Part shown: piece by piece, positions 26,044-64,000 of the stretch
Layout: every line of letters starts with the position of its first letter
How positions within the stretch are numbered: position 1 is the first letter of the stretch
Virus record (IMG/VR): IMGVR_UViG_3300011337_000669
Reading direction: 5' to 3' (one strand)
DNA from: a virus
Taxonomy: Duplodnaviria; Caudoviricetes
DNA: 64,000 nucleotides
Made by a program: the position numbers and the translations under genes
Notes under the pieces: model-generated
The model's database searches: none
What the model saw: only the letters and a program-made list of their open reading frames with translations
What the model was told of the DNA's origin: nothing

Positions 26044-26709
26044 TTAATTGGTGAATACTTTGTTCCCTTTACTTAAATTGTCTCCCGCCCATAGAGGTTG
26101 AAGGTTACTATAATGACATAACTTATAAAGTTCTTCTTCAGTTTTTGCCGACGATAATGGAATGATGTGGTCAATGTGCCATCCACCCTGATTTTCCCAT
26201 GTCATTCCATTAATGAACTGTTTTTCTAAATGTTCTTTGAGAGATTGAGGTGTACACCCTACAATGTCAAATGTTTTGTTTTTTTTGGTAATACTCATTA
26301 ATTTCGTATATTTCCAAATTCTACATCTCACTCTATTAATTAAATTAAAGACAGGGTCATTATCTCTTCGTTCTTTTCTTTGTTCTTGTTTTCTCGGTTT
26401 ATAATTTTTACGGTATTCTTTTCTTTTTTCAGGATTTTTTTCTAACCAATTTTCCCTTATTTCTTTAACTTTTTCCGGATTTTCTTCTCTCCATTTTTTG
26501 TGACGATTATAAACCCATTCAGGATTTTTTGCCGTCCACTTTCTATGTCTCTCTAATGTTTTTTGATAATTTTCTTTAACATAGTTTTTACCTCTCTCAT
26601 TATTACATTTTTTACAACAATATAATAACCCATCTTTAGATGATTTTGAATAACCAAATTCCCAAACATTTTTTTCTTTTTTACATTTAGAACAAACTTT
26701 AGTTTCCAT
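26044..26709 (-). CDS. HNH endonuclease with N-terminal CxxC..CxxC zinc ribbon (cassette 1)
   Basis: CSKC...CKKC at the N-terminus and HIDHIIPLSSAK...NLQPLW..DN at the C-terminus. Confidence 0.88.
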   Translation of the reverse strand: METKVCSKCKKEKNVWEFGYSKSSKDGLLYCCKKCNNERGKNYVKENYQKTLERHRKWTAKNPEWVYNRHKKWREENPEKVKEIRENWLEKNPEKRKEYRKNYKPRKQEQRKERRDNDPVFNLINRVRCRIWKYTKLMSITKKNKTFDIVGCTPQSLKEHLEKQFINGMTWENQGGWHIDHIIPLSSAKTEEELYKLCHYSNLQPLWAGDNLSKGNKVFTN

Positions 26710-26851
26710 TTTTGATATATTCTTTTAATAGTTTATTAACAAGGGAAGATAAGTTTATTGATTTATCCTTAAAGTATTGTGGCATTTCGGGATCAAGAGA
26801 CACCGCCAGTTTTACTTTCTTTTTGTCATCATCAATTTTTTTTCTTCCCAT
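26699..26851 (-). CDS. 50-aa ribbon-helix-helix / CcdA-like protein (cassette 1)
   Basis: Manual translation MGRKKIDDDKKKVKLAVSLDPEMPQYFKDKSINLSSLVNKLLKEYIKNGN. Overlaps the HNH start by 11 nt and is homologous to three other copies. Confidence 0.82.
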   Translation of the reverse strand: MGRKKIDDDKKKVKLAVSLDPEMPQYFKDKSINLSSLVNKLLKEYIKNGN

Positions 26852-26896
26852 ATTAATAAATATCTGTAAATATAGTAAAAGTATAATTATTTATAT

Positions 26897-27907
26897 TTAA
26901 TTATCTTCTTCTTCGTTTTCTTCCTTCAAATCAAAATCACCATCAGTACCGATTATATCTTTCCAATAATCAGCGTATTCTTTTTTATATTTTTCAATAT
27001 TAGTTTTTTCCTCGGTAGAATCTTTACCAGCCAAAAAACCATGTGGAGTGACAATAATTTTTCCGTCATCATAACCCAATCCAGAGATGTGGTTTTTCAT
27101 TACAGAAACTTTACTTCGTATTGCGAATTTAATTGACCTTTTATCCTTAGTTGCGGTAATCTTAGTAGTTCCCGCCTCTTTTTGATTACCAAATAAAAAT
27201 ACTAAAGATGAATTTAACCAAATTGCCTCACCACCCTTGCTCTTAATCTTAGGTTGTCCAAATGGATTATCTGGAAGACTTACCCACGGTTGATTTATTA
27301 TAACCAAAGTATTTTCATACTTTGACTCTGATTTTCGAGATCCTGAAATACGCTGATTAATGCCCATCCCAATTTTGTCTGCTAAGACCCCAGCATTATG
27401 CATCTTCCCACCGCGACCTTCGTAAGTCATCTTACATGGGACACTACCCACACTATCCCATAGGAACAACAAACTATAATCCAAATCACCCTTTTCTTGA
27501 GCATCTAATAGTTCATTGATGTAGTCAGTAATTTGCTCAATATAACTAAAGTTATTGTTGAAGATGTAAAATCCATTCCAATCTAATTCACCTGTCTCTT
27601 CGTCAACAACCTCTTCACATTGGAGACCCATCAACTTACAGTGTTCGAAGGACCACTTCTGTTCTGTAATGATGAATACTGGTAGAATTCCTTTCTTCTG
27701 AGCATCAACAGCAGCCTTTACCATCGCAGTGGTTTTTCCTGTATCAGAATGACCCAAGAACATGTTAAGATGTCCAATGGCTGGACCAGGAAGTCCTACG
27801 GCATCCAAAAAGTCAGGACCCAAATCAAAAAATCTTTGAGGTTTATATTTTGCCGAAGTTGAGAATTTTTTCTTCAAACTTTCGAAGTCGTTCTTCTTAA
27901 TTGCCAT
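26897..27907 (-). CDS. recA: RecA/UvsX-like recombinase
   Basis: Walker A GHSDTGKTT, FLWDSVG, LVIINQ, KSKGGEAIWLNSS and VMKNH motifs. Confidence 0.88.
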   Translation of the reverse strand: MAIKKNDFESLKKKFSTSAKYKPQRFFDLGPDFLDAVGLPGPAIGHLNMFLGHSDTGKTTAMVKAAVDAQKKGILPVFIITEQKWSFEHCKLMGLQCEEVVDEETGELDWNGFYIFNNNFSYIEQITDYINELLDAQEKGDLDYSLLFLWDSVGSVPCKMTYEGRGGKMHNAGVLADKIGMGINQRISGSRKSESKYENTLVIINQPWVSLPDNPFGQPKIKSKGGEAIWLNSSLVFLFGNQKEAGTTKITATKDKRSIKFAIRSKVSVMKNHISGLGYDDGKIIVTPHGFLAGKDSTEEKTNIEKYKKEYADYWKDIIGTDGDFDLKEENEEEDN

Positions 27908-27920
27908 AAGGAATGTGAGT

Positions 27921-27951
27921 AAAACTCGGACACTAAAATAGTATCCGAGTT
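27921..27951 (-). terminator. Putative intrinsic terminator after SSB gene
   Basis: Stem aactcgga/tccgagtt followed by TTTT on the minus strand. Confidence 0.65.
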
Positions 27952-27962
27952 GAGTTATTTAA

Positions 27963-28811
27963 TTAGAATGGTAAATCTGATGATGGTTCGTCGTCCATCT
28001 GTGGATCTACATACGAGGATTTTTTGGACCCTCCACCGAATGATTCGGTTTCAACTGAACTGTCTCCGTAAACGTAACCACCTTTTTCTGAATCCCACTT
28101 AGGAGTTTCTCCTCTTGCAATTGCTTCAAGATAATCAACAGGTTTTTTGGAATAAACATCCAACCAAGTCAATTCATCTTCCATCCAAGCCTTTGCCTGT
28201 TGTTTATCTTCATGTACAGGATTTGGGTCATCATACATAATAGTTGATACTGTTGTATATTCTTTACCCTTTGGGGTTTTTGCTTTAGCAAGTTCAATGA
28301 CTAAGTCACGTCCTTTTTCAGGGTCAGTAATATCTCCTTTGTTTCTCCAAATAGGAATAATTTTGTCAAGGATACCATCATTCTTGAAGTTGTGTTTGAA
28401 TCTCCAAAACTTTGGACCATCTTCTTCGTGGTCTCGGTCGATTACCTTTACAATATAGAATTTTCTTGAACGATACTGAGCTGCTAATAATTTGTCAGAC
28501 TCTTTACCTGTAGACATCAATTCTTCGTAAACCTCATTCAAAGGTGAACGTTCGTTGTCATTTTTTCCTGGATCGTAGAATTTCTGCCACTGTCCACCCA
28601 CTTGAATTTCGTGGTACCATGCCTCTTTGAATGGTGATGAACCATCTGGAGTTGGGAGAATTCTAACTCTCCTCTGTCCTGATTTCTCTTTATCACCTAA
28701 GATTAAAGCGAAATACTTCTTCATTCTTTCGTCTTGCGACATTTTCGATTGGGCCCCGCCCCCTTGCTGATTTTTTTCGTACTGTGCCAATACGGCGTCT
28801 AATGAACTCAT
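27963..28811 (-). CDS. gp32-like single-stranded DNA-binding protein
   Basis: RVRILP...PFKEAWYH, DPEKGRDL and acidic C-terminal tail DDEPSSDLPF. Adjacent to the recombinase. Confidence 0.85.
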   Translation of the reverse strand: MSSLDAVLAQYEKNQQGGGAQSKMSQDERMKKYFALILGDKEKSGQRRVRILPTPDGSSPFKEAWYHEIQVGGQWQKFYDPGKNDNERSPLNEVYEELMSTGKESDKLLAAQYRSRKFYIVKVIDRDHEEDGPKFWRFKHNFKNDGILDKIIPIWRNKGDITDPEKGRDLVIELAKAKTPKGKEYTTVSTIMYDDPNPVHEDKQQAKAWMEDELTWLDVYSKKPVDYLEAIARGETPKWDSEKGGYVYGDSSVETESFGGGSKKSSYVDPQMDDEPSSDLPF

Positions 28812-28845
28812 GTTTTTTATGGATTAAATTAATAAATTGTTTATA

Positions 28846-28876
28846 CAAATATAAGTAAAACTGTGACTATGTCAAA
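28846..28876 (-). promoter_or_regulatory. Bacteroidota-type primary-sigma promoter for the SSB gene
   Basis: Minus strand reads TTTG-N19-TATATTTG, an exact fit to the -33 TTTG / -7 TAnnTTTG consensus. Confidence 0.75.
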
Positions 28877-28877
28877 T

Positions 28878-28904
28878 AAAAAAAGGTACCTCATGGTACC
28901 TTTT
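28878..28904. terminator. Intrinsic terminator (symmetric)
   Basis: aaaaggtacc-tcat-ggtacctttt. Confidence 0.85.
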
Positions 28905-28921
28905 ATGTAGTTTGTTCGATG

Positions 28922-29599
28922 TTACCTGAACGATGTTTTATAGACTTCCTTGTCTAAACCTCCTCCAGGTTGAAACGAATTTTTTATATCACTTACATTT
29001 ATATCTGTAACTTCGTCTGAAGTTAAAACATAATCATTTTTTCCTGTCTTTTCCATTTCTTCTGACTTATCATCGAAAAATTGTGAAAGTTTTTGACTAA
29101 ATGGATATGAATCATAGGTTCTTAACTCTAACTTTTCTTGTGGAGTTTTTTCTCTATACTTCTCTATTTTACTTTCAAGGGAGTTAAGTTTATTCATAAT
29201 GTTATCCATTTCACCTAACTTAGATTGTAAATCATTAAGTTGGTTGAATAAGTTATTAAAATACTCTTCTTGTTTTGTCTCTATATTTTTTTGTGAGTCA
29301 ACCAATTCAGTGATATCTAATTCTTCTGTACCACTTTCTTCTGATTTTTCTTCTGATTTACCTTCGTCATCAATCTTTTCAACATCAGGATCTGATTCGA
29401 CATCGATAGGTTGTGGTTCAGTTTCTGGTGCTGATGGAGGTGTTGCTTCTGCAGGTGCCGGAGCAACCTCAGCTCCAGGTATTGGCGCTAATGCACCTAA
29501 TGCGTCCTCTTCGGGTGTTGCTCCGACTTGTTCTAAAATATACTGATTGATTTTTCTATGTCTTTCAATCTCCTTGATAATTTTTTTATCTAAACTCAT
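28922..29599 (-). CDS. Acidic, Pro/Ala-rich coiled-coil hypothetical protein (possibly virion-associated)
   Basis: 225 aa with a low-complexity linker and a heptad-like segment NQLNDLQSKLGEMDNIMNKLNSLESKI. Confidence 0.65.
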   Translation of the reverse strand: MSLDKKIIKEIERHRKINQYILEQVGATPEEDALGALAPIPGAEVAPAPAEATPPSAPETEPQPIDVESDPDVEKIDDEGKSEEKSEESGTEELDITELVDSQKNIETKQEEYFNNLFNQLNDLQSKLGEMDNIMNKLNSLESKIEKYREKTPQEKLELRTYDSYPFSQKLSQFFDDKSEEMEKTGKNDYVLTSDEVTDINVSDIKNSFQPGGGLDKEVYKTSFR

Positions 29600-29602
29600 T
29601 GG

Positions 29603-29827
29603 TTAACCATTTAATAATGTTTTTATTCCGTTAGCGGTTTCCACTCTAACTCTACGGTTAGCAGTAGTTTGGTGTCCAGCTCTTTCTATAAGACCGTCTC
29701 TTTCTCTTACTGTGTAACAATCTCCTGTATCCAAGTCACAAACTTGTTTGGTTCCGTCTCCGTTGTCTTCCTGTGAAAATCTTACAGATTTACCAAGATA
29801 ATTGTCTAATGCTGATTTAATGTTCAT
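29603..29827 (-). CDS. Small hypothetical protein
   Basis: 74-aa ORF preceded by the TATTTAT motif and co-oriented with neighbours. Confidence 0.7.
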   Translation of the reverse strand: MNIKSALDNYLGKSVRFSQEDNGDGTKQVCDLDTGDCYTVRERDGLIERAGHQTTANRRVRVETANGIKTLLNG

Positions 29828-29858
29828 AAGAATCTTTTTATATAAATATGTTGTTATG

Positions 29859-32800
29859 CTATAAAGTGAATTTTTGCGAACTTACCGTAAAGGTTGAACC
29901 AGGTGAATTAACATCAGTATAAGTCAAAATCATTTGGAACTCCCCTAATACCTTTATTTCTAATATATTTGTATATTTTGTATCAGGTCCATTTTCAATA
30001 ATCACTTCTAATTTATTCAATTCGGGGAATCTTACAATTTTGGTTTGTGTTACAGTCAAGTTTGTAGTTGGAGTAAATTGGAAAGTGTAGTATCCTCCAT
30101 TTGGTTTTACAACATTGTAATAACTATTCCCCATATAATTTGGTAATTCACCTGAATTGGTATCGGATACTAAAATAGTTTTTCCAATTCCTGATGGAGA
30201 TTGTTGTGGCACATTTAGTAAAAATTTATAATTTAATGGGTCATTTTTAGGATTTTCTGTTCTGTCGTCAGGTATTGCCGTCAAAGTAATATTAACCTCT
30301 ACTCTTATGTTTTCAGATTTGAATTCATCAAGATTCAACAAAGTACTCATTTGTTGTTTATTTATAGAGAACTCTTGTTGGTCTTGTGAAACAAAATTTT
30401 TAAGGTTTTGGTTTTTTTGTTCCTTAATTAGTTCTTCTTTTAGAACATTATTTGGTCCGACAATTAATTTTTTAATTGTATAACTGTAAACATTGGTTTC
30501 ATTAATTTTCCATCCTTGTACCTGAGGATTTACTTTTACATCTAACTCCAAAGTATTACCCAATTCGTCTCGAAGAATTTCATAGATAAAAGGTAACAAT
30601 CCAGTATTTTGAGGATTAAGATTCGATCCAGCTTTATCTTGCTGTTGTACACTCGATTGTTGTTGGGTTGTAGTATCCGCATATGCCCCTGCCGATGACG
30701 TTGTTTTATCTTTCAATGATGGATTAAATGTAAAATCCACCAAACTTTCTTTATCACCATATTCAGTTATAACTGTTATTCTTCCTGTAGCAACATTTTG
30801 CCCCTCAGGTATTTGAATATTAGGTAAAACAAATCTTAATGTTTCAGAATTGAACACTGTAATATCCTTCAACTCAACATCTTTATTAATTACTTTGATT
30901 GATTTCACAGACTCAAAATTTCGTCCATTAACTTGAACTATTGTTCCTGTATATCCAGCAGCAGGTGAGAATGTTGATACAACAGGTGGTGGACAAATTT
31001 GACCTATATTCGGAGGCACAGGAGATGGAGTTGGAGTTACACCAGGTGTACGTCCTTCATCTTGAACTTTCTTATCCGCAGAACTAAATTCTACCGCGAG
31101 TTCTTGAGGAATCAATCCTGCATCTTTTGCGGATGCCAAACCTTTATTCAAGGTATCTATCGTTTGTTTGAACTCTCCGACATTTGAATCAAAATATTCT
31201 TCTGATATATTTTTCTCAGGCCAGTAACAAACATAATACTTAGACATACTAATTTGTCTTATCTGCGTGACTCTTTCACGTAATCTTCCAGCCATGAAAT
31301 TTATGTAGTCATCTAATGAATTAAAATGAATGATTGGTTGAGATGAATTTTTTGAAGGATTAGTTTTAATATTCACACAACTATAGTTTTTTCCAAACAA
31401 ACTTACTGAGGCTCCCCAATCAACACTAAGAGATAATGTCCCTAAGTTATTGTTCCATCCATTGAAACTCCCAACGTTTGTGTTTGCATCTGATTGGAAT
31501 GTTCTGATGTAAGAAATGAGATAAATAACTGATTGTAAATCCACCTGATTAGGTAAAAGTCGTTTTAGTGCATTTGCAAAATCAACAGGTGTGACTTTGG
31601 TTGACTGACCATTAACGGCAACATATCCAGGAAATGCATTCAAATATACAGGTGCAGTAATTTTCGAACTACATGAATTCGTTGTATCTGCAGTGTTATC
31701 GGCTTTCTGTACAACTTCAGTTGATTTAACATTATCTGTTGTTGCCGGTAAACTTACTTGGTCTTTCTTAATTTCTAACGCTTCTTCTAATTTTGTTATC
31801 AAATTTTGATTAATACTTTGTAGTAAATTATCTATTTGTGGTAAATCGAAATAACCTTGTCTAGTACCATCAAAAACAGTTTGGAAACTTCCTGGTTGTA
31901 TTGAGTGGTTCACACTAGTAATCATATATGAACCATCAAACATTGGCACGTGTCTCAAATTAAAATACATCATAGGTTGTATTAATGCATTTCCTAAACA
32001 TGTTATTGTTGACTTATAAGACCTATATTTGTATATGTCGTATAAACTAATATTTTGTGTCGACACAGGACGACCAGATACTTGATTTGACATATCAAGT
32101 ATGGCGTTTATTGATTCTGACGTAGCCTTTCCATTATCTTGTGAAACTGTCATCGAATAAAAAATATTTTGATTTCTTGTCCCGACATCAACATTAAATC
32201 CTACACATCTATTAGAAAGTGCCCAATCTTTTTTTCCTTGTTGATTTTCAATCAAAGGATTAGGTTGTCGACTCATGTCAAATCCATCACTTCTAAATTT
32301 GAAAGTCTCTTTTTGAAGGTTTGGATATTGGGATGGTTTACCAACATAAAAACAAACTAACTTTGGACTCGCGTTCCTATAATCTACGTTCAAAAAAGTA
32401 CCCCACATGTCATTTGCGAATTCGGAAGAAGCTTGCGCTTTAGGTGTTGCAGTGACATCCACATCTTGAATACCATAGAAGTTTACATAAGCTGGAAGTG
32501 GCATCACAGTGAAGTTATTATTCATCAAAATTGTGCTGATGAAGGTATATACACTCATCGTTTGATTCAATGAGTTTGTATTAAACATGTTTTGGAGACT
32601 GAATATATCCAATATTATTGTTTCCCCTATGTTTCGGGATGCTCTATCCAAAAATAAAAAGTCCTCAAACAAAGTTTTTGATTTGTAATCCCCACCAGCA
32701 ATCCATTTGTCGTTAAGGGTTTTGAATACTTCATACATTTCCACTTTACCTTGTTCACCTGAAATCACACTATTAATTGCCCGTTCAGGTAATTGTTGTT

Positions 32801-53468: not shown

Positions 53469-53543
53469 TATATTATATGATTACCTATATGTTGATAAAT
53501 ACTCAGTTTATAACTATATTTAAGCCAAATATTTTTCTTATAG

Positions 53544-55295
53544 ATGGATGTAAGTCTAGAATCGAAAGCATTATCACTATTGGAGTCTTATGAAGGTGGA
53601 AATAACTATTTACTTGAACTTAAACGAAAGTCTCAAATAAATAAAAAATTCTACCCTACAAGAAGCCAATCCGAGTATATAATCAATAACCATAAAAACC
53701 AACCTAAGGTTGCAAAGAAGTGGGTAATTTTAGACGCATATTTTGCGAAAAAGTTAGCGGATGACAAACTCTATACCTTAATACCTGATAAGGTGTGGGT
53801 TGAAAAGTTATTATGTGACACTGAAAAGGCTTTTCACATTTGGGGTAGAGTTTTTGAAAGTGAAGAATATCACGATTTTTGGTTACCAAAAGCCGCAATT
53901 ATAAAAGACAATTCAGTCAAAGATGTTGTAATTGATTACGAAAAATATTCTCACAGACCTCCACTACAACATCAAAAAGAGGCAGTACAAAAACTTGTTG
54001 AAAACAAAAAATTCATATTAGGGGACGATATGGGTTTGGGGAAAACTACTTCAACTATTATTGCAGCATTAGAGACAGGAGCAAAGAAGATTCTTATCAT
54101 TTGTCCTGCAACTCTTAAGATTAACTGGAAACGAGAAATTGAAAATTATTCAGACAGGTCGATATTCATATCTGAAGGAAAAACATTTAGTACCGAACAC
54201 GATTTTGTCATCATAAACTACGACATTATTAAAAACTTTCATGACACTAAGAAAAAAGATGAATCGCAAGTTATTGCTGCCAATTTTGATTTGGTGGTCG
54301 TTGACGAAGCTCACTATATCAAAAATCCTACAGCCCAAAGAACAAAACTAATAAACGACATTGCCAAAAATGTTGATAGATTATGGTTGTTAACAGGTAC
54401 TCCGATGACATCTCGTCCAATTGATTATTATAATCTATTAAACCTTGTTGAATCACCTGCCGCTAGAAATTGGATGGCTTACGCCATCAGATATTGTAGT
54501 GGATATCAGTTCAATGCTGGAGGTAGAAAAATATGGAATGTAACCGGATCCAGTAACCTTGAGGAGTTGAGAGATAGAACATCAGGAACAATATTAAGAA
54601 GACTCAAAGAAAATGTTTTGGATTTACCTGAAAAAATAATTACCCCTGTTTATCTTCGATTGAAATCCAAAGCATATGAAGAAGTTATGGGGGAGTATTA
54701 TGATTGGTATGATAAAAATCCAGAAGAGTCAAAGTCATTGACAGTTCAATTCACAAAATTGACGAAAGTTAGACAAATCATTGCGGATGAAAAAATACTT
54801 CAAACAATCGAACTTGCGGAAAATATTATCGAACAGGGTAAGAAAGTAATTATTTTTTGTAATTTTACAGATTCGTTAAATAAGATTGTGGAACATTTTG
54901 GTAAAACATCGGTTAAACTTGACGGATCAATGACCCAACACCAAAGACAATATAGTGTCGACCAATTCCAAGAAAATGATAAAATAAAAGTTTTCGTCGG
55001 TAACATAAAAGCATCTGGAACTGGAATCACTTTAACCGCTGGTGAGGCCGCAATATTTAATGACCTATCATTCCTCCCTTCAGATCACGCACAGGCGGAA
55101 GATAGGAGTTATCGATACGGTCAGAAAAATAACGTTTTGGTTTATTACCCTATTTTTGACAACACTATTGAGGCAATAATTTATGATATTGTAAACGCAA
55201 AGAAAAAAGTTATTGCTACTGTAATGGGTGATGACAAAAATTCTGGAGATATTGCCGAAGAAATATTAAATAAAATAAATAATTTAAGAAAATAA
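53544..55295 (+). CDS. SNF2-family helicase/ATPase
   Basis: GDDMGLGKT, VVDEAH, LTGTP, LRRLK and QAEDRSYRYGQ motifs. Confidence 0.93.
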   Translation: MDVSLESKALSLLESYEGGNNYLLELKRKSQINKKFYPTRSQSEYIINNHKNQPKVAKKWVILDAYFAKKLADDKLYTLIPDKVWVEKLLCDTEKAFHIWGRVFESEEYHDFWLPKAAIIKDNSVKDVVIDYEKYSHRPPLQHQKEAVQKLVENKKFILGDDMGLGKTTSTIIAALETGAKKILIICPATLKINWKREIENYSDRSIFISEGKTFSTEHDFVIINYDIIKNFHDTKKKDESQVIAANFDLVVVDEAHYIKNPTAQRTKLINDIAKNVDRLWLLTGTPMTSRPIDYYNLLNLVESPAARNWMAYAIRYCSGYQFNAGGRKIWNVTGSSNLEELRDRTSGTILRRLKENVLDLPEKIITPVYLRLKSKAYEEVMGEYYDWYDKNPEESKSLTVQFTKLTKVRQIIADEKILQTIELAENIIEQGKKVIIFCNFTDSLNKIVEHFGKTSVKLDGSMTQHQRQYSVDQFQENDKIKVFVGNIKASGTGITLTAGEAAIFNDLSFLPSDHAQAEDRSYRYGQKNNVLVYYPIFDNTIEAIIYDIVNAKKKVIATVMGDDKNSGDIAEEILNKINNLRK

Positions 55296-55300
55296 AATAA

Positions 55301-55343
55301 TTTTGTGAATATTCACACTTTTACCACATTTGTGGATATTTAT
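55301..55343 (+). promoter_or_regulatory. Cassette 2 leader: host-type promoter with embedded palindrome plus TATTTAT box
   Basis: TTTG-N19-CACATTTG. The palindrome TGTGAATATTCACA (55304-55317) overlaps the -33 box and spacer. TATTTAT at 55337-55343. Confidence 0.55.
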
Positions 55344-55347
55344 TATT

Positions 55348-55509
55348 ATGGGAAGAAAATTGAAAACAGAAGAAGAAAAAAAAACTAAAGTATCGGTTGC
55401 TCTTGAACCAGAATTATTATCATATTATAGAAACCTTCATATTAATTTATCGTCACTTGTTAATAAATTACTCAAAGATTATAGAGAAGATGGGAAGAAA
55501 AATTTGTAG
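55348..55509 (+). CDS. 53-aa ribbon-helix-helix / CcdA-like protein (cassette 2)
   Basis: MGRKLKTEEEKKTKVSVALEPELLSYYRNLHINLSSLVNKLLKDYREDGKKNL, with a 20-nt overlap with the HNH gene. Confidence 0.85.
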   Translation: MGRKLKTEEEKKTKVSVALEPELLSYYRNLHINLSSLVNKLLKDYREDGKKNL

Positions 55510-56158
55510 TAAATGTAAAATTGAAAAAGATATTTGTAATTTCAGTCGTAAAAAATCAAACCAATCAGAACTTCGTTCAGAATGTAAAGAATGTAATAGA
55601 ATAATCAGTAAAAAATATAGAGAGGAAAATAAAGTAAAAGAAATAAATAGAAGTAAAAAATACAGAGAAGAAAATAAAGAAAAACTCAAAAAAACCTATA
55701 TCGATAATATAGATTATTTCTTATCTTATAGACAAAAAAATAAAGAGTACTTCGAAAATTATAATAAAATCTACTACGATAATAATCGAAGTAAAATTAT
55801 CGAATATAAGAAAGAGTATCAGAAGAAAAAAAGAGATTCAAATCCAACATATAACTTTATTTGCAACATTAGAGGTCGGGTTTATCATTATTTGAAATTA
55901 AAAAACATTACAAAAAAAAATAAAACTTTCGACATTGTTGGGTGTTCCCCTACTTTCCTCAAAGAGTACATTGAAAAAAAATTCACCAAGGATATGTCTT
56001 GGGATTTGGTGGGAAAAGAAATACATATTGACCACATAATACCATTATCTTCAGCAAAAACAGAGGAAGAAATTTATAAATTATGTCATTATACAAATCT
56101 TCAACCCCTGTGGGCTGAAGATAATCGGAAAAAATCTAACAAGTTGGATTATTTATAG
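55490..56158 (+). CDS. HNH endonuclease with zinc ribbon (cassette 2)
   Basis: Start moved to MGRKICSKCK at 55490 to match paralogues. HIDHIIPLSSAK...NLQPLWAEDN. Confidence 0.88.
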   Translation: MGRKICSKCKIEKDICNFSRKKSNQSELRSECKECNRIISKKYREENKVKEINRSKKYREENKEKLKKTYIDNIDYFLSYRQKNKEYFENYNKIYYDNNRSKIIEYKKEYQKKKRDSNPTYNFICNIRGRVYHYLKLKNITKKNKTFDIVGCSPTFLKEYIEKKFTKDMSWDLVGKEIHIDHIIPLSSAKTEEEIYKLCHYTNLQPLWAEDNRKKSNKLDYL

Positions 56159-56174
56159 TAAATTAAAGCCAACA

Positions 56175-57713
56175 ATGACAAAAATACAACAGAAGATTGA
56201 ACAACTTGAATTACAAATTGTAGAACAAAAAGTGACGAGAGAAAAAGAGTTTTTAATCACAGAAATGAAAAAAATTGGAATAGAAAAACTACCTTATTCC
56301 TACACTGCTCTCAAACAATTTATTGACCCCGAAACAATGGAGATACATTATTCGAGGCACTACAAAACTTATGTTGATAAATTAAATGATGCTCTCTCCA
56401 AAAAAAAGTACGGAGATTTGGAGTTAGAACAAATAATCAAAACAATAAGTCGGTTTGACAAAACAATCAGAAACAACGCGGGTGGAGCATTTAACCATGC
56501 TTTGTTTTGGAATTTTTTAACTCCCGAACCAAAAAGACTCAAAGGAGATTTACAGAAAAAAATTATTAAAGAGTTCGGTAGTTTTATTTTATTCAAGAAA
56601 AAATTCGAAGAGATTGCCAAAGAAAGATTTGGTTCAGGATGGGTTTGGTTAGTTTTGACAGGGAGAAATAGTTTGAAAATTATGTCTACACCAAACCAAG
56701 ATAATCCTTTGATGAATATTATTGAAGGTGGAGGATTTCCGTTATTAGGTTTGGATTTATGGGAACACGCATACTATCTCAAGTATAAAAACAAAAGGGA
56801 TGAATATATTTCTAACTTTTGGAAAGTGGTGAATTGGGAATTTGTTTCCAAACTTTATGATATGAAAACAGAAACAAAACTTTTGGAATCTGTTGAAATG
56901 AAAAAAATTATCAAAGAGTTCAAAGAACCAAAATTTTGTGATTCAAATGAAATTACTTTTTATAAGGAATTAATCAACAATCCAAAGATAAAAAAATTAT
57001 ATCAAGATGGTGTCACTGATGTTTTGAAAAAAGTATTTCATGAATATTGGGTGGAGAGTAATGAGAAAGAAATGTCAGGATTTTATGGTATTGAATCCGA
57101 CAGTGCTAGATCTGTTTTGAATAACTTGAATACCAACTTCAATACTTTTTGTTTATTAACAAAAGCAATCAATAGACAAATAGAGTCAATTAACAAACCG
57201 AACAAAAAATTCGATTTTTCCATCAAAGAGAAACGAACAATTAGTGAGGTCAATAGACTTATAGCGGCATTAGATTATTTCAAAAAAGAAATTTTTACAA
57301 AAAACAACGAAGATTTTGTTAACATCATTAGTGTTTTGTTAAAACTTTGGGATAGAGGACAAAAATCTGAAGACAAAGTTCTTTCTAAAATAGAACAATA
57401 TTTCGGTAAAGATTCTTCAGTTGAAAAGATAGGTGGACATGGCCAAAAGAGTGACGCATTCAAAGGTATTGATTTGATTGTTAATGTTGGTGGTAAAAAA
57501 CACACCGCTCAAGTGAAACCTTTTTCTTCTATAAAAAAAGAAGGAGACAAAATCACAGTTTTGAATACAGGCAACGTTAAACCATATAACGTAGATTGGA
57601 TGATATTTATAAACACTAAGTCTAATAAAATTCTAATTATCGAGAATAATCCAATTCAGAGTCGTGGACAATATGTTTTCGACGCTTCTTCTCTTATTCA
57701 CGAAATAGATTAA
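56175..57713 (+). CDS. Mn-type superoxide dismutase fused to a C-terminal PD-(D/E)xK nuclease-like domain
   Basis: SOD ligands in IHYSRHYKTY, GGAFNH and DLWEHAYY, plus the NQD Mn-type signature. C-terminal GQKSE...D...GIDL...AQVK. Confidence 0.8.
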   Translation: MTKIQQKIEQLELQIVEQKVTREKEFLITEMKKIGIEKLPYSYTALKQFIDPETMEIHYSRHYKTYVDKLNDALSKKKYGDLELEQIIKTISRFDKTIRNNAGGAFNHALFWNFLTPEPKRLKGDLQKKIIKEFGSFILFKKKFEEIAKERFGSGWVWLVLTGRNSLKIMSTPNQDNPLMNIIEGGGFPLLGLDLWEHAYYLKYKNKRDEYISNFWKVVNWEFVSKLYDMKTETKLLESVEMKKIIKEFKEPKFCDSNEITFYKELINNPKIKKLYQDGVTDVLKKVFHEYWVESNEKEMSGFYGIESDSARSVLNNLNTNFNTFCLLTKAINRQIESINKPNKKFDFSIKEKRTISEVNRLIAALDYFKKEIFTKNNEDFVNIISVLLKLWDRGQKSEDKVLSKIEQYFGKDSSVEKIGGHGQKSDAFKGIDLIVNVGGKKHTAQVKPFSSIKKEGDKITVLNTGNVKPYNVDWMIFINTKSNKILIIENNPIQSRGQYVFDASSLIHEID

Positions 57714-57731
57714 CAAAGATATTTATATTAT

Positions 57732-58859
57732 ATGTCAGCAATACCAGAACCAGAACGAAGTAGGATATACACTAGAATTAAACACCAATTAGGTGCTCCA
57801 CTCAGAAGTGTAGAACTTGAAGACGAAATGTTGGATTCACTAATGGAATTAGCAATAGGGGATTATGAAGAATATATCCTTCAATGGTTAATTGATTCTC
57901 AGTGGGTTAATCTTGTAAACTTAAACATGAACGAGAGGTCCGTAGCTAGAGCATTAGTCACGAGGACAATGGATTTCGAACAACAATTCAGTTACTCATA
58001 CTCCAAAATTGTGGGTCTCCAAACCGTAGGTCCGTGGGTTCTAAAGAAAGATTATTTCATTTTAAGCGCAAACACACAAACTTATGAAATACCTGCAGGA
58101 CGAGAGGTTAATGAACTATTATGGTTTTCTAATCAAGCCTGGAACGCATTTGGTTTGGGGGGAGTCGGTGGATTTGGTATGGGTGGTGTTGGATTAGGTG
58201 CCAGTGAAGCGGGTTATGCTCAAATGGGCTATCAAGGATCTTATTTTATGATGTCAGGGTTTGATTACCTAATTAGAATGCAAGAGGCTAACATTCTTAA
58301 CAGAATTCTTGGAGGTTCATTGACTTATAGAATTACAGGTCTTCCTGATGGTAAAAAACTTATTCACTTATACAATACCCCTGGTGGAAGATTCAATTGG
58401 AACAATTATAGTTTATATCAAGGGAAGGCAGTTTGGTATTGGTATTATGATGTTGAACCAGATAGTAGAGCTGATTGTTTAAAAAACAATCCTGATATTA
58501 TCAAACTTCCTACTGACGTACCAATCGAAGAACTTACTTGGACAGACATAAATGTACCAGGTCAACAATGGGTTAGACGATGGTTTACCGCGTATTGTAA
58601 AGAAACATTAGCGAGAGTGAGAGGAAAATACTCAGGTAACCTTAAGACTCCTGATAGTGAAATTACAATGGACTATCAGAGTTTGTTAACTGAAGCTAAA
58701 GATGAAAAAACTAAATTGATTGAAGAATTAATTGGAGCTGAAGGATGGTTAACAAGATTAAGACCTGAAAAAGTAATGGAAAGAGAAGCATTAATCGCAG
58801 AAAACCTAAATAAACAAATGAAATTTAGAGCAATGCCTCGACAAATTTACGTAATATAA
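57732..58859 (+). CDS. Neck / head-tail adaptor protein (gp13-like)
   Basis: IYTRIKHQLGAPLRSVELEDEML...A and KETLARVRGKY motifs. Preceded by the TATTTAT box. Confidence 0.8.
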   Translation: MSAIPEPERSRIYTRIKHQLGAPLRSVELEDEMLDSLMELAIGDYEEYILQWLIDSQWVNLVNLNMNERSVARALVTRTMDFEQQFSYSYSKIVGLQTVGPWVLKKDYFILSANTQTYEIPAGREVNELLWFSNQAWNAFGLGGVGGFGMGGVGLGASEAGYAQMGYQGSYFMMSGFDYLIRMQEANILNRILGGSLTYRITGLPDGKKLIHLYNTPGGRFNWNNYSLYQGKAVWYWYYDVEPDSRADCLKNNPDIIKLPTDVPIEELTWTDINVPGQQWVRRWFTAYCKETLARVRGKYSGNLKTPDSEITMDYQSLLTEAKDEKTKLIEELIGAEGWLTRLRPEKVMEREALIAENLNKQMKFRAMPRQIYVI

Positions 58860-58860
58860 T

Positions 58861-59196
58861 ATGGCAATTATTAAATCTATATCATCCAAAAGAATAATTA
58901 GAGGTGAAGTTATCAACGCTTCCGAAATTTCTGTAGTTTCAGAAACCACTTACAGAACTAACGGAGAAAGTTGTGTTATTGTAAGAGGTGTTGCTCAATC
59001 AGTAATCATATTAGATTCAACTAACACAGACCACGTGGTTGTTAAAGCAATGACTAACCTCACCATACTTCCTGATGTCGGGCTAATCGACGAAGAATAT
59101 GATGAGGTTGTTGTTGATAAATTTGCCTGTATTGAATTCAGATTTGTTGGTGGTAACTGGTATGTGTTGAGCTCAGATGGACTTAAACAATCATAA
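58861..59196 (+). CDS. Hypothetical beta-rich protein
   Basis: 111-aa ORF directly after the neck gene and before a terminator. Confidence 0.7.
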   Translation: MAIIKSISSKRIIRGEVINASEISVVSETTYRTNGESCVIVRGVAQSVIILDSTNTDHVVVKAMTNLTILPDVGLIDEEYDEVVVDKFACIEFRFVGGNWYVLSSDGLKQS

Positions 59197-59224
59197 AAAA
59201 AAGTGGATATAATCCACTTTTTTT
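59195..59224. terminator. Bidirectional intrinsic terminator between convergent genes
   Basis: A-run + gtggat / ata / atccac + T-run. Confidence 0.88.
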
Positions 59225-59822
59225 ATGTCACTCTATTTCCCTTTTTCATATTATCCTTTCCCCACAATGGTTGTAGATTAGTATAATTAGATAGTCTGAT
59301 AATATCTTCTTCATTTTTTGCGGAAGATAATGGAATTATATGGTCAATATGCCATCCGTAAAATCCCTTGTTATCCCAGGTCATACCTTCACTAAATTTA
59401 TCTTCTAAGTATTTTTTCAAAAATGTTGTATCACACCCTAAATAATCTATCGAGCGATTTTTTTTAATAAGATTATTATCTCTAAAAATATCTTTTAACC
59501 TATTTCGATAATTTGTAATTAATTTAAATAATATATCTTTGTTATATCTTTCTTTATTTTTCTTTGACTGATAATTCCTAATTTTATCTTTGTTTTTATC
59601 TCTCCATTTTTTATTATATTCGTATAATCTTCCCGGATTTTTTTTAAGAAATTTTTTTTTAATGTCGTCAGATTTTTCCTGATTATTTTTTCTCCAATTC
59701 ACACTGTTCTTATTTTGACATTTTTTACAGTTAGACCTTAATCCATCATGAGAATCCCCATTTCTATAAAATTCACAAACATTTTTTTCCTCGTTACACT
59801 TACTACAAATTTTTGTTTCCAT
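59223..59822 (-). CDS. HNH endonuclease with zinc ribbon (cassette 3)
   Basis: METKICSKC...CKKC and WHIDHIIPLSSAK...NLQPLWGKDN. Confidence 0.88.
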   Translation of the reverse strand: METKICSKCNEEKNVCEFYRNGDSHDGLRSNCKKCQNKNSVNWRKNNQEKSDDIKKKFLKKNPGRLYEYNKKWRDKNKDKIRNYQSKKNKERYNKDILFKLITNYRNRLKDIFRDNNLIKKNRSIDYLGCDTTFLKKYLEDKFSEGMTWDNKGFYGWHIDHIIPLSSAKNEEDIIRLSNYTNLQPLWGKDNMKKGNRVT

Positions 59823-59964
59823 TTTTTCTATAATCTTTAAGTAATTGACTAACTAATGAAGATAAATTAATATGAAGCCCTCGATAATAAGTTAATAGTT
59901 CAGGGTCTAACGCCACTGATACTTTAGTTTTTTTTTCTTCTTCCGTTTTTAATTTTCGTCCCAT
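59803..59964 (-). CDS. 53-aa ribbon-helix-helix / CcdA-like protein (cassette 3)
   Basis: MGRKLKTEEEKKTKVSVALDPELLTYYRGLHINLSSLVSQLLKDYRKNGNKNL. 45/53 identical to the cassette 2 copy, with a 20-nt overlap with the HNH gene. Confidence 0.85.
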   Translation of the reverse strand: MGRKLKTEEEKKTKVSVALDPELLTYYRGLHINLSSLVSQLLKDYRKNGNKNL

Positions 59965-60015
59965 ATTAATAAATATCTACAAATATATCAAAAGTGTGGT
60001 AATTCACAATTTTAT

Positions 60016-62796
60016 TTACATAAATTTTTCCCACCCTTCTTCAGCTAAGTCATACATATAATCAGGACTTAGACCTCTTTTTTCCCAATACTTGAGTTCC
60101 AACTCAGTAATATCCAATACGTCTTCTTTTAACCTGTCTTGGTCTCCATCACTTAATGGATGACCATTAATAAGTTCACACTGAGATGTTGTGAAGATAC
60201 CTCTTTCTGATGGGTTATTAACAATTAATCCATTTCTTACCTCATCCTTGAAAACAACCATTAAAGGTTCAATTCTTTTGTTAAATGTCGCAATTGCTCT
60301 TGGAACATTATAGTCCCCTGTTAAATCAGGGTTATTGTCTAAAATATCTTTATCCAACATATAACAATTAATCATAACTCCATCCGTAATGGGTTTTGTT
60401 TTGACCCCATTAAACTCATTAAGGGCATTAATATCTTTAATTTGTTTTGGAGTCATCTTCTGAACATCACCTTGTGATGATTTAGTCCCATTATTAACAT
60501 ACATAATAACATCACCTAAACTCACATTCAAATTATTTTGTATTGCCAATTCCAAATATGCCATCCGGCTCATACTATTACCCGATTTAGTTTTGGTGTT
60601 TAATCTTTTTTTATATTCTTCAATAGTCAATTTAACCTTGGCTCTTTGGGCTATCTTACTTAACGGAATCTTTTTATCATAAATGGTTTGAAGATACTCA
60701 TAATAGTATTCAACGAATGCTTTCCCATCCCCTTGTAATAACATCTTAATCCCCTTATCTAAGAATGTCTCAATATAAATCGGAAGTTTTTTTGACTTGA
60801 TACTGTTACCTGTAAGTTTGATTTTACCCTTCGCATCCATAACCGCATAGTTCTTACGAGCCAAGTTGATACATGATGGCCAAACACCATCGGTATCCAA
60901 AGCCATTTCACCTCTCATGAATATATCGTTATACTCCGCAACATCCGCCTCAGGCCCGAAATATTCTTTACCCAACTTAACCTTCCAATTCAAACCACGT
61001 CCAACGTATTTACGATTCTTAGCATCCTCAGGTGTAGAAAAGTTCACACCGTCAGTATCCATTACCAACGGAACATATCCTTTCGACATAAAAAACTTAA
61101 TCATCTGACGAAGATATTGTCTTCCAGTGCAGGTAATCTGCTCGCCCATGTACATGTCACCCCAAGCATAAACCTGAGGGGCGGATAACGCACCGAACAT
61201 CGAGTTGATAAAAATTTTAATCGGTAATTGTTTGTTACCATAGGACTCTGACTTTTTACGATCGGTCTCATAATATTGCTCCGCCAAGTTCTTGTACTTG
61301 ATACGAGTATCTCGGAACCACTTTAACATACCTTTCATCGCGCCTGTTACGTCACAGTCAGGAAATACGTCGTGCACCAACTGAATGGAGGGGTATAGAG
61401 ACGAGAAGTCAAGCTTCAGTACGTCCTTACTATATCCCACCTTAAGTAGTCGTGAGAGACCTCCTACGAAGTCAGTCTTGGATTCCTTGGCAGGAATTGC
61501 TATGTTGTGTTTATATGACCACGCCATCATTAGCATCTTCCACAAAGTTGCCGTACCCATAGTGGATACTCTCTCATAGGTAGTCGGAATCATCGCCGCA
61601 AGTAAGAATGAACCTTGATTGAATTCTTGGTCAACTTTCAAGGTTTCGTCCAAGTCATCGTCAAGATATCTTTCAACCAAGTTGTCTCCCGTTACTTTAA
61701 GATAAACATCACTTCTACTCTCACAAATCTCATCTATCTTAGGGTCTTGTCCAACCTTACGGTAGTTTCCATTCTGTGTATTCAACCAAAACTCTTCTTT
61801 CTTGGTATAGAATGGAGCAATGTCCAAGTGGTCAATATAAACTCGGTCAGGGGCTTCAGCATTGATATACTGTGTAATATATTTCAAACCCGCAGACTTA
61901 ATACTTGAATTGATTGCTTGTGCTCTACGAACCGCATGAATAATATCAATAACATTATATCCCCAAATTGAAGTTTGAGTATATAACTCAACTTCGTTGG
62001 CAAGTTTTAACATACCTTCTTTTCTTGTGAATGAATGGTCGGGGTGTAGGGAACGACAAATCTTCTTGGGGTCAATACCCAAGATTTTACATCGTTCAAA
62101 TATCCAATGCCAGTCGAAGTTTGCTGAATTGTATCCACCAATAATGCTTGGTTTCAACTCATTAATGATACTAAAAAACTCTATGATGGCACCTCGTTCT
62201 TGAGATTCGTCAATACATTCAATTACTTTATGGTATCCTTTGTTTGTTTTAATTCCAATCATGAATATACGACCGTCTTTGGGTTCCAATGCGGTCGTTT
62301 CCAAGTCAAATACCAATCGGGTTACTTGATTATAATCCTCAAATCCTTTGAACAATCTTTTTTCTTTTGAAACAAGATATTGTTCAACAGGAGACAAAAT
62401 AATTATTTTATCTTTTGTTCTCTCACCCCACGGATCACATCCACCTTCTCTAAAAAATTGCACAAGTTCACGGTAACCTTTAAGAGATTTGACCATAAAG
62501 GTCATACCCTTTTCTAATCTTTTATTACCGTATGTTTCAAGTTTATCAATCATGATACCATGTTTGGTCATGGCTTCCTTCTGTGCGGCTTTTGAACCTC
62601 CATAGAAGTTAATATCCCGTAAGTCGCCAACCCAAGCGAATGGCGTAAAATTGTCTTTACGAATTTCTTTACCTTTGCCTGGAATTTCCTTGATCTTGAA
62701 GATAGTGTTGGAAGCGTAGTCGAACTCGATGGCGACTATAAATTCTTCGGGATCGTTTCCATGTAGGAACGATTCAATTTCTTTTTCTGTAAACAT
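60016..62796 (-). CDS. Family B DNA polymerase with 3'-5' exonuclease
   Basis: FDLETT (ExoI), GYNSANFD (ExoII), DFSSLYPS, KIFINSMFG and MDTDG motifs. Confidence 0.96.
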   Translation of the reverse strand: MFTEKEIESFLHGNDPEEFIVAIEFDYASNTIFKIKEIPGKGKEIRKDNFTPFAWVGDLRDINFYGGSKAAQKEAMTKHGIMIDKLETYGNKRLEKGMTFMVKSLKGYRELVQFFREGGCDPWGERTKDKIIILSPVEQYLVSKEKRLFKGFEDYNQVTRLVFDLETTALEPKDGRIFMIGIKTNKGYHKVIECIDESQERGAIIEFFSIINELKPSIIGGYNSANFDWHWIFERCKILGIDPKKICRSLHPDHSFTRKEGMLKLANEVELYTQTSIWGYNVIDIIHAVRRAQAINSSIKSAGLKYITQYINAEAPDRVYIDHLDIAPFYTKKEEFWLNTQNGNYRKVGQDPKIDEICESRSDVYLKVTGDNLVERYLDDDLDETLKVDQEFNQGSFLLAAMIPTTYERVSTMGTATLWKMLMMAWSYKHNIAIPAKESKTDFVGGLSRLLKVGYSKDVLKLDFSSLYPSIQLVHDVFPDCDVTGAMKGMLKWFRDTRIKYKNLAEQYYETDRKKSESYGNKQLPIKIFINSMFGALSAPQVYAWGDMYMGEQITCTGRQYLRQMIKFFMSKGYVPLVMDTDGVNFSTPEDAKNRKYVGRGLNWKVKLGKEYFGPEADVAEYNDIFMRGEMALDTDGVWPSCINLARKNYAVMDAKGKIKLTGNSIKSKKLPIYIETFLDKGIKMLLQGDGKAFVEYYYEYLQTIYDKKIPLSKIAQRAKVKLTIEEYKKRLNTKTKSGNSMSRMAYLELAIQNNLNVSLGDVIMYVNNGTKSSQGDVQKMTPKQIKDINALNEFNGVKTKPITDGVMINCYMLDKDILDNNPDLTGDYNVPRAIATFNKRIEPLMVVFKDEVRNGLIVNNPSERGIFTTSQCELINGHPLSDGDQDRLKEDVLDITELELKYWEKRGLSPDYMYDLAEEGWEKFM

Positions 62797-62860
62797 TTTT
62801 CATATACGAGTGGTTTATTGGCTTTCACACTAACGTGAAGTTTACCTTACTCATCGTCTA

Positions 62861-62891
62861 TAAATATAAAAGAAATTTGTGTCTTGTCAAA
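62861..62891 (-). promoter_or_regulatory. Bacteroidota-type promoter for DNA polymerase
   Basis: Minus strand reads TTTG-N19-TATATTTA. Confidence 0.6.
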
Positions 62892-63269
62892 TTAACAACA
62901 AGCAGTTTCGGAAATGAAACTGTCTTGGATGTTGATGTATAGTTCCTCTCGGATTGGAAGAATCAGGTTTCCTTCGTCATTCTTAATCAAGAATTGACCC
63001 TGATATCTACCAGGAGTATTTGTATCTCTTGAACTGAACTTGAAATAAATGTAGTACTCAGGTGCGGCACCTAAAGGTAGAATTAAATTAACGATTTCGC
63101 AAGGTGCTGAAACAATCTTCGGAATTCCCGTTTCCACATCAATCATGGTAAAAAATATTGTCGAGACCTCAAGGTCTTCCATGAGTTGTTGGTAACCTGA
63201 TCGTCCATCTTTTACAACTTGGAGTTTCAAAATTGGTAAGGTAGCCCCTTTTTTAATATACCATTCCAT
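62892..63269 (-). CDS. Hypothetical protein, possibly BppU-N-like baseplate domain
   Basis: IKKGATLPILKLQV...DTNTPGRYQGQF...ILP pattern, preceded by the TATTTAT box. Confidence 0.5.
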   Translation of the reverse strand: MEWYIKKGATLPILKLQVVKDGRSGYQQLMEDLEVSTIFFTMIDVETGIPKIVSAPCEIVNLILPLGAAPEYYIYFKFSSRDTNTPGRYQGQFLIKNDEGNLILPIREELYINIQDSFISETACC

Positions 63270-63350
63270 TCTTTTTCTTTATTAATAAATATATAGCACA
63301 TTTGTTTTGATAAAGTGAAACTTTTACTATCTTTCGGATATTTATAAAAT

Positions 63351-63506
63351 ATGGCAAGACCTACAAAATTAGAAGAAGACCGAAAAGTAAAATTTGGTAT
63401 CAGTTTAGACCCCGAAATTTTTAACCGAATGGTTAAAGACAAAATAAAAAAATCTACCTTAATCGAAAAATTACTGAAAGAATATTATGGAAAAAAAGAT
63501 TTGTAG
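63351..63506 (+). CDS. 51-aa ribbon-helix-helix-like protein (cassette 4)
   Basis: MARPTKLEEDRKVKFGISLDPEIFNRMVKDKIKKSTLIEKLLKEYYGKKDL, with a 20-nt overlap with the HNH gene. Confidence 0.8.
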   Translation: MARPTKLEEDRKVKFGISLDPEIFNRMVKDKIKKSTLIEKLLKEYYGKKDL

Positions 63507-64000
63507 TAAGTGTAAAATTGAGAAGGAGGTTTGTGAATTTTATAAAAAAAATAAAAACTCAAACTTATATAGGGGACAATGTAAAAAATGTACGGACATA
63601 ACTTCATCTGTATATAAGAAAAACAATGCCGAAATTATATCTGAAAAATCTAAAAAATTCAGGAAGGAAAACCCTGAAATTAACAAAGAGAAATGTAGAA
63701 TTTATAGGGAAAAAAATCCTAAATCATTCAAAAAGTGGTTAGAAAAAAATAAAGAACATAGAAGAATCTATATAAATAATTATAACCAAAATCCTAAAAA
63801 TAAAATTAAAAATTCTTTGAGGTCAAGAATAAATGAACTGATGAACAAAAAATATGACAACCCAAGAACCATTAATTTGGTCGGTTGTGATTATGATTTT
63901 TTGATAAAATATATTGAGAGCAAGTTCACTGAAAACATGTCTTGGGATAATTACGGATATTATGGTTGGCATTTAGACCACATTATACCTTTATCATCGG
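63487..64000 (+). CDS. HNH endonuclease with zinc ribbon (cassette 4), truncated by the window edge
   Basis: Absent from the ORF track. Reads MEKKICSKCK...CKKC...GCDYDFL...MSWDNYGYYGWHLDHIIPLSS. Confidence 0.85.
   Translation, partial: MEKKICSKCKIEKEVCEFYKKNKNSNLYRGQCKKCTDITSSVYKKNNAEIISEKSKKFRKENPEINKEKCRIYREKNPKSFKKWLEKNKEHRRIYINNYNQNPKNKIKNSLRSRINELMNKKYDNPRTINLVGCDYDFLIKYIESKFTENMSWDNYGYYGWHLDHIIPLSS

Follow-up and report, generated by a model that had tools for sequence, protein, structure and literature searches.

A ribbon-helix-helix microprotein gene precedes HNH nuclease genes in a metagenomic phage and may equip homing endonucleases with a portable autorepressor module

Why would four nuclease genes scattered over one phage genome each be preceded by the same kind of gene, coding for a protein of about 50 amino acids? 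The question is posed by a 64,000-nt stretch of DNA (the window) from the IMG/VR virus record IMGVR_UViG_3300011337_000669 (Duplodnaviria; Caudoviricetes), in which a first-pass annotation, made from the letters alone, had noticed four copies of a two-gene cassette: a small open reading frame (ORF) of ribbon-helix-helix (RHH) type followed by a gene for a zinc-ribbon HNH nuclease. It had proposed either an autorepressed family of homing endonucleases or a toxin-antitoxin-like module. All eight ORFs (four RHH and four HNH) lie where it had placed them, and the cassettes, here called c1 to c4 (Table 1), do occur in both orientations, two on each strand. They are located, respectively, between a recA-like (UvsX-like) gene and an exonuclease gene, between an SNF2 helicase gene and the next gene, after polB, and divergently from a gene for a 125-aa protein. 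The window belongs to an 84.8 kb record (CheckV completeness 28%) that in full carries exactly these four cassettes; its relatives reach 326 kb, which implies a large freshwater phage lineage.

The reading we favour, with a probability of roughly 0.55, is that each cassette combines a free-standing homing endonuclease with a portable module consisting of a promoter/operator and an RHH autorepressor. The autorepressed homing endonuclease of the first-pass annotation is thus kept as the best-fitting explanation, and its regulatory part is what we infer from the lines of evidence that follow.

The small ORFs are genuine genes, and their products consist of little more than an RHH domain. The Pfam profile CcdA (PF07362, curated cutoff 22.4 bits) scored above its cutoff for the proteins of c2 and c3 and just under it for that of c1, the c4 protein gave a weak match to RHH_3 below the cutoff of 21.6 bits (scores in Table 1), and BrnA matched more weakly than CcdA. 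The CcdA matches are confined to the RHH half of the profile (positions 1-37 of 71), and the small proteins end 5-8 residues past the end of the match (profile position 35-37 of 71). An AlphaFold model built from 31 sequences (predicted local distance difference test score, pLDDT, 70) has an extended segment followed by helices at residues 21-29 and 34-48. Given this model, an exhaustive structural aligner listed RHH proteins almost throughout its top ~38 rows (Z 2.4-3.8, 39-50 aligned residues), including the omega repressor (Z 3.8), ORF56/CopG-type proteins, DinJ, CopA, ParG, the RHH domain of PutA, RelB, NikR, AmrZ, Arc and SvtR; the absolute Z values are low because the domain is tiny, and the composition of the list is its informative part. 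Model and search together give a strand-helix-helix topology of about 45 residues. Foldseek of the same model against PDB found no match, and the RHH profile run against PDB sequences found only low-complexity matches to designed repeat proteins. Purifying selection on the gene is evident from 36 distinct sequences of 53 codons (median pN 0.15, pS 0.57, ratio of nonsynonymous to synonymous substitution rates, dN/dS, about 0.15), and c2 compared with c3 gives a dN/dS of 0.11. The RHH matches and the purifying selection together establish the small ORFs as real RHH genes, as had been proposed. In alignment, the c2-c4 proteins are 42-56% identical to the c1 protein, and M1, R3, K12, K14, L19, P21, E22, I32, S35, L37, L41, L42, K43, Y45 and G49 are invariant. 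The label 'post-segregation antitoxin' that family members carry at the Joint Genome Institute (JGI) is probably misleading, and PADLOC and NCBIfam gave no match for either the RHH or the HNH protein.

Each cassette also has a conserved leader of its own, in line with the earlier claim. The leaders of c1-c3 (45-52 nt) occupy the whole spacer to the upstream gene, and the c4 RHH gene starts 81 nt from its divergent neighbour, an arrangement that requires c4 to have its own promoter. The motif ACTTTT-N(6-16)-ATATTTAT is common to all four leaders and has exactly four occurrences in the window, against 0.10 expected from shuffles, none of which reached four. The blocks (T)CACACTTTT and GATATTTAT-N4-6-ATG are retained in 57 distinct leaders, which come from many unrelated phage settings. 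Just 5' of ACTTTT, the commonest leader class carries a palindrome, perfect in c2, and the bases at this position vary with the class of RHH beta-strand: KTKVSVAL goes with TGTGAATAWTCAC, KVKLAVSL with ATAAATAATTAT, KVKFGISL with AAAGTGAA and KIRxSxTxD with AAAATGAT. Members of the RHH superfamily characteristically act as dimers that place a two-stranded sheet in the major groove of DNA, and the co-variation would fit an operator that is read by this sheet. As c2 and c3 have the same beta-strand and palindrome, cross-regulation within one genome is to be expected. The Bacteroidota promoter consensus consists of TTG, a gap of about 19 nt and TAnnTTTG; a loose version of it, TTG-N18-20-TAnnTT[T/G][G/A/T], was found in 31 of 113 distinct leaders compared with 2.0 in shuffles, and where it is present the palindrome falls within its spacer. 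Matches to the palindrome with up to three mismatches number 26 across the window (31 expected) and show no excess outside the leaders, so that any regulation should be local. No terminator was found before the leaders.

Further evidence that this module is separable from what it precedes comes from its cargoes, for which we give our own locus labels. The leader and RHH gene stand before a NUMOD3/TnsA-like nuclease at the same recA/exonuclease site (L009-L011, L334), before LAGLIDADG nucleases (L381, L402), before a 288-aa protein of no known type (L330), and directly before a 712-aa C5 cytosine methylase (L323:322-2460), which itself carries a LAGLIDADG-bearing intein (Intein_splicing, Hint). 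The RHH proteins preceding these structurally unrelated nucleases and the methylase are 73% identical. Such a range of cargoes, together with the lack of fusions described below, points to a role at the level of DNA rather than one specific to a partner protein.

Comparison of near relatives shows how the cargo changes. Between the window and L033, identity is 95-100% through polB, the leader and the RHH gene, drops exactly at the RHH/HNH junction to 30-55% across the HNH gene, and recovers past the HNH stop (78-92%). Compared with L004 and L005, the leader and RHH gene are 95-99% identical, whereas the flanking recA-like gene is at about 71-95%, mostly 80-90%; in L005 the difference is limited to the N-terminal and middle 300 nt of the HNH gene, with the catalytic end and the downstream gene at 94-100%. 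Across 122 distinct cassettes, the HNH N-terminal/middle region was less than 50% identical in 187 of the 240 pairs whose RHH proteins are at least 94% identical, and in those pairs the last 95 HNH residues have a median identity of 78%. The unit of exchange is thus often the nuclease, or only its N-terminal/middle part, rather than the complete two-gene cassette, a point that the first-pass annotation had missed.

The nucleases share an N-terminal CxxC...CxxC zinc ribbon and an invariant HIDHIIPLSS block, and HIDHIIPLS...NLQPLW...DN is invariant in 27 sequences. This catalytic motif is accompanied by matches to the family profile PHROG 1035 (E 2e-17 to 3.5e-24), while the Pfam HNH profile scores 13.7-18.3 bits, below its cutoff of 21.4. 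The HNH proteins of the window are 40-49% identical in alignment. Between the zinc ribbon and the catalytic domain, those of c1-c3 contain helical repeats of about 14 residues of the form (K/R)xY(R/K)xxNxEK(I/V)K, modelled at pLDDT above 90, whose copy number explains most of the length variation among relatives (185-257 aa). The variable part formed by zinc ribbon and repeats is probably the DNA-recognition region and may thereby set the cleavage specificity. The catalytic part was modelled at pLDDT 40-60, and Foldseek of the HNH model returned nothing significant (best row Hpy99I, E 0.83); a search of the HNH profile against PDB sequences gave no match. Each nuclease starts at its own ATG or GTG, with the conserved N-terminus METKxCxKC right there. 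The overlap of RHH stop and HNH start measures 11 nt in c1 and 20 nt in each of c2-c4, and the HNH frame is +1 relative to RHH in c1-c3.

How regularly do the two genes go together? An RHH-alignment scan of IMG/VR yielded 79 loci, about 73 of which have an HNH gene of the same family starting at +143 from the RHH start. Starting from the HNH side, an RHH gene was found at -142 in 63 of the 79 nearest relatives that have upstream sequence; the other 16 lack it, their HNH ATG lying 2-5 nt behind the stop of the recA-like gene. Cultured phages have HNH relatives too, likewise with no RHH gene upstream. The first-pass annotation had itself named HNH homologs without the partner as grounds for refutation; because they exist, the pairing is frequent but facultative rather than obligatory. 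A word-indexed RHH search gave 335 clusters, mostly of 53 aa, and an exhaustive profile search of 1.8 billion proteins, with E up to 0.001, gave 472 cluster representatives. All of the best 150 have lengths of 45-134 aa and thus no nuclease fused to them. At their outer fringe the 472 are generic RHH proteins: P0214 occurs in small Rep-encoding replicons without a nuclease, and the contig of the distant RHH protein P0187 is too short for its context to be judged. No RHH relative was confirmed in 185,579 bacterial and archaeal species genomes, tblastn of the RHH protein against 50,697 deposited phage genomes found no match, and neither did megablast with 20 kb of the window; phage and module are known only from metagenomes. 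As a separate observation, seven studies of river, lake and estuary metagenomes contain DNA near-identical to window positions 54800-56400, which makes the cassette-bearing phage a widespread one.

Phages unrelated to this one carry the cassette behind genes for a DnaG-like primase or an SbcD-like phosphoesterase, and RHH proteins of the c2/c3 type occur at the recA/exonuclease, SNF2 and polB sites alike. A solo RHH of 61 aa, with its leader intact but without a nuclease, is found in the same sequence on L160, L346, L359, L384 and L396, and could be either a remnant or a retained regulator. At L395:2650-3460, the same leader pattern precedes a 54-aa ORF that is not RHH-like (MGRKSHNLTEEQKIERNRIYRMRCYRK...), followed by a 195-aa protein that looks GIY-YIG-like but matches nothing in Pfam.

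That the cassettes are mobile, as had been suggested, is borne out by empty sites at three of the four locations. The comparison used the 80 relatives closest in the recA-like protein (86-91% identity) and those closest in a 375-aa protein (86-97%). At the recA/exonuclease site, about 62 of 77 close relatives are empty (12-25 nt), five of the 77 loci have the HNH gene only, L140 has a frameshifted RHH gene with an intact HNH gene, and L160 has the solo RHH; the SNF2 and polB sites are each empty in more than 70 of 80 relatives. Such presence/absence polymorphism at the same intergenic site is what a homing endonuclease gene displays. In the empty allele at polB, polB and a convergent gene for a 111-aa protein overlap tail to tail. 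Insertion of c3 replaced the last polB codons (window 60016-60040; EEGWEKFM, compared with EEGWEEKLTTV in empty-site relatives), and the terminator-like hairpin at 59196..59224, absent from those relatives, arrived with it. Decay is represented as well, by the split HNH gene of L151, by the L140 and L160 alleles, and by L012:3563-5321, where the nuclease behind the RHH gene is interrupted by an IS607-like element, the HNH C-terminus resuming at about 5394; this element encodes a serine recombinase with a MerR-type N-terminus and a TnpB/Cas12f-like protein.

The same sites receive other DNA too. At the recA/exonuclease site, a general hot spot for insertions, four close relatives (4 of 77 loci; L085:3514-4509, L143) have a C5 DNA methylase instead of the nuclease, and in L011 a methylase directly follows the RHH-nuclease cassette. 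Unrelated inserts are found at the polB (L181, L194) and SNF2 (L195-L213) sites and in L164, comprising 71-72 aa ORFs in 273-283 nt and a 530-aa ORF in 1.7 kb.

Taken as a mechanism, the favoured reading would run as follows. The leader, with its promoter-like and palindromic operator-like elements, would give the cassette its own transcription wherever it is inserted. RHH and nuclease would be made from one message, the nuclease being translated through coupling to the RHH gene. RHH dimers would then bind the palindrome inside the promoter-like region and switch the cassette off, keeping nuclease expression brief and low. During co-infection the nuclease would cut relatives lacking the cassette, and recombinational repair would copy it in. 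A 194-nt metatranscriptome contig that covers 55446-55639 and bridges the RHH/HNH junction of c2 offers a weak hint of co-transcription, with DNA carry-over possible; RNA cover was read from contigs, and the parts without it are uninformative.

Several findings weigh against this reading. The elements that co-vary, beta-strand and operator, are about 50 nt apart, so linkage alone could explain their association. The Bacteroidota-type pattern is present in a minority of leaders only, and a scan for sigma-70-type promoters stayed at the level of chance in this AT-rich DNA and was thus uninformative. The gap between the two invariant leader blocks ranges from 3 to 13 nt. Inverted repeats with arms of at least 7 nt occur in 25 of 113 leaders compared with 11 of 113 when shuffled, which is a modest enrichment, and when leader conservation was compared with that of third codon positions only the invariant blocks stood out, in a grouping confounded by variable spacing. 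Finally, the nearest HNH relatives that do without RHH mean that whatever benefit the module brings is not essential.

Other functions have been weighed against autorepression. The leader and RHH gene might be a docking or homology segment for swapping nucleases or recognition modules, an integron-like platform for expression and exchange serving at least three nuclease families, in which RHH/operator classes would form immunity groups and a resident or solo RHH would act in trans to silence a competitor nuclease of the same operator class in co-infection; the contest between selfish nucleases would thereby hinge on the specificity of the repressor. The identity breakpoints at the RHH/HNH junction in L033, the greater conservation of leader and RHH than of the flanking recA-like gene in L004 and L005, the divergent HNH N-terminal/middle regions behind near-identical RHH proteins, the persistence of the solo RHH with its leader on several contigs and the cross-regulation expected of c2 and c3 all suit this idea, which we nevertheless find rather unlikely: it is compatible with autorepression and does not exclude it, action in trans is putative, breakpoints at gene borders can come from selection for intact genes, and solo copies may be decay remnants. 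Quite improbable, in our estimate, is the toxin-antitoxin-like pair of the first-pass annotation, an addiction or phage-exclusion module in which RHH binds and neutralises the nuclease. The operon layout resembles that of type II systems, in that a palindrome is followed by a small RHH gene whose end overlaps a larger nuclease gene, the best Pfam match is named CcdA with BrnA behind it, and the JGI label says antitoxin; yet the protein stops where the toxin-binding half of CcdA would begin, the partners are structurally unrelated and include a methylase, nuclease genes occur without RHH or, in L140, intact behind a frameshifted one, and the 185,579 bacterial and archaeal species genomes scanned, PADLOC and NCBIfam gave nothing. 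Neither a C-terminal toxin-binding segment nor an obligate single toxin partner was thus found. A complex prediction with one HNH and two RHH chains scored 0.21 (mark 0.34) and speaks neither for nor against contact.

About equally doubtful is that RHH is an accessory DNA-binding subunit, recruiting the nuclease to its target or protecting the genome that bears the cassette from being cut by its own enzyme. Separate DNA-binding modules are used by many homing endonucleases, and the overlapping frames suggest that RHH and nuclease are translated together, but the RHH type does not track the insertion site, RHH is uncoupled from the variable nuclease region, the best 150 family representatives include no fusion, and the palindrome is at home in leaders only, as the window-wide count indicates. 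An insulator, blocking read-through from the recA-like, SNF2 and polB genes into the nuclease or buffering the neighbours, would make sense of the contrast between RHH-less HNH genes, which start so close behind the recA-like stop that they depend fully on upstream expression, and RHH-bearing loci, where the predicted operator comes between the two genes; as c4 has no co-directional upstream gene and the leaders are not preceded by a terminator, we think this very improbable. A programmed +1 ribosomal frameshift in the A-rich overlap, yielding a single nuclease with an N-terminal RHH domain, was considered on account of the runs of 5-6 A in the overlaps and of the +1 frame relation. The whole genome is A-rich, though, every nuclease has its own start codon exactly at its conserved N-terminus, RHH-less HNH genes start at the same residue, and natural fusions were not found among the best 150 representatives; we judged this candidate extremely unlikely and rejected it.

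Table 1. Positions of the cassette components and of an associated hairpin in the window.
Feature	Position	Strand	Remarks
c1 leader	26852..26896	-	Fills entire spacer behind recA-like stop; holds ATAAATAATTATAC, ACTTTT, a TAnnTTT-like element and GATATTTAT
c1 RHH microprotein, 50 aa	26699..26851	-	Beta-strand KVKLAVSL; CcdA 20.6 bits, profile positions 1-37
c1 nuclease, 221 aa	26044..26709	-	Zinc ribbon, helical repeats and HNH domain; PHROG 1035, E 3.5e-24
c2 leader	55296..55347	+	Perfect palindrome TGTGAATATTCACA at 55304-55317, then ACTTTT...GATATTTAT
c2 RHH microprotein, 53 aa	55348..55509	+	Beta-strand KTKVSVAL; CcdA 25.6 bits (cutoff 22.4)
c2 HNH nuclease, 222 aa	55490..56158	+	PHROG 1035, E 2.2e-17
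c3 leader	59965..60015	-	Imperfect palindrome TGTGAATTACCACA at 59995-60008
c3 RHH microprotein, 53 aa	59803..59964	-	CcdA 24.3 bits; 85% identity to c2 RHH
c3 HNH nuclease, 199 aa	59223..59822	-	HNH start overlaps RHH stop by 20 nt
13-pair hairpin, T runs on both sides	59196..59224	.	Between convergent gene for 111-aa protein and c3 HNH gene; looks like a bidirectional terminator
c4 leader	63270..63350	+	Divergent from minus-strand upstream gene; inverted repeat AAAGT-GAA-ACTTT at operator position
c4 RHH microprotein, 51 aa	63351..63506	+	Beta-strand KVKFGISL; RHH_3 17.1 bits, below cutoff
c4 HNH nuclease	63487..64000	+	Cut by window end; full gene at G000:C1:19303-19911 of the 84.8 kb record

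The usual view of homing endonuclease genes is that of single-gene parasites, and a literature search found no paper on RHH-coupled homing endonuclease cassettes. Our results suggest a compact and widespread two-gene design, in which a portable promoter/operator and a microprotein repressor can be placed before any nuclease. If confirmed, this design would provide a simple, testable model for the self-limiting expression of selfish nucleases, and would explain why annotation pipelines miss a conserved gene of 50 aa beside many phage nucleases. It would also supply a family of very small orthogonal repressor/operator pairs, along with HNH enzymes whose recognition modules have been swapped in nature, a series in which target specificity could be studied.

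Among known systems, the nuclease is closest to PHROG 1035 HNH proteins (called 'endonuclease VII' in RefSeq) of Flavobacterium elemo phages and Rhizobium phage 16-3, which belong to the same family and have the same architecture at 29-45% identity; in the elemo phages there is no RHH gene or anything else upstream of HNH, and in phage 16-3 an unrelated 69-aa gene stands there, a 'transcriptional regulator' in RefSeq and not RHH. The seg and mob homing genes of T4-like phages likewise lie between conserved replication and repair genes, occur sporadically in close relatives, include decayed forms and must be kept at low expression, whereas here a control module is common to at least three nuclease families. 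The RHH protein, for its part, shares with Arc and Mnt of phage P22, CopG and omega a length of 45-71 aa, an RHH-only domain and a basic N-terminal arm; these proteins autoregulate through short palindromic or repeated operators, as is proposed here. They show no detectable sequence relation to it beyond the fold, and the putative repressor described here differs from them in being coupled to a mobile nuclease. With the CcdA, ParD and RelB antitoxins it has in common an N-terminal RHH domain and a small upstream gene overlapping that of the effector, but it has no C-terminal toxin-binding segment, its partner is interchangeable and dispensable, and it was not found in the cellular genomes scanned.

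The closest parallels in regulatory logic are of other folds or arrangements. The C proteins of restriction-modification systems are encoded by a small gene just upstream of the nuclease gene, often overlapping it, have palindromic boxes in their own promoter, and control when and how much nuclease is made once a new cell has been entered. The shared position of a small regulator gene, upstream of and overlapping the nuclease gene, is a likeness by analogy only, as C proteins are helix-turn-helix rather than RHH proteins, their systems comprise a linked methylase, absent from the window cassettes and from most others, and the nuclease they control is a restriction enzyme and not a homing enzyme. 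The homing endonuclease I-TevI represses its own promoter via an operator that overlaps it (PMC2988022); there the nuclease itself is the repressor, whereas here a separate upstream RHH protein would take that part. The logic of the self-limiting module proposed here would thus, by analogy, resemble that of C proteins and of I-TevI alike.

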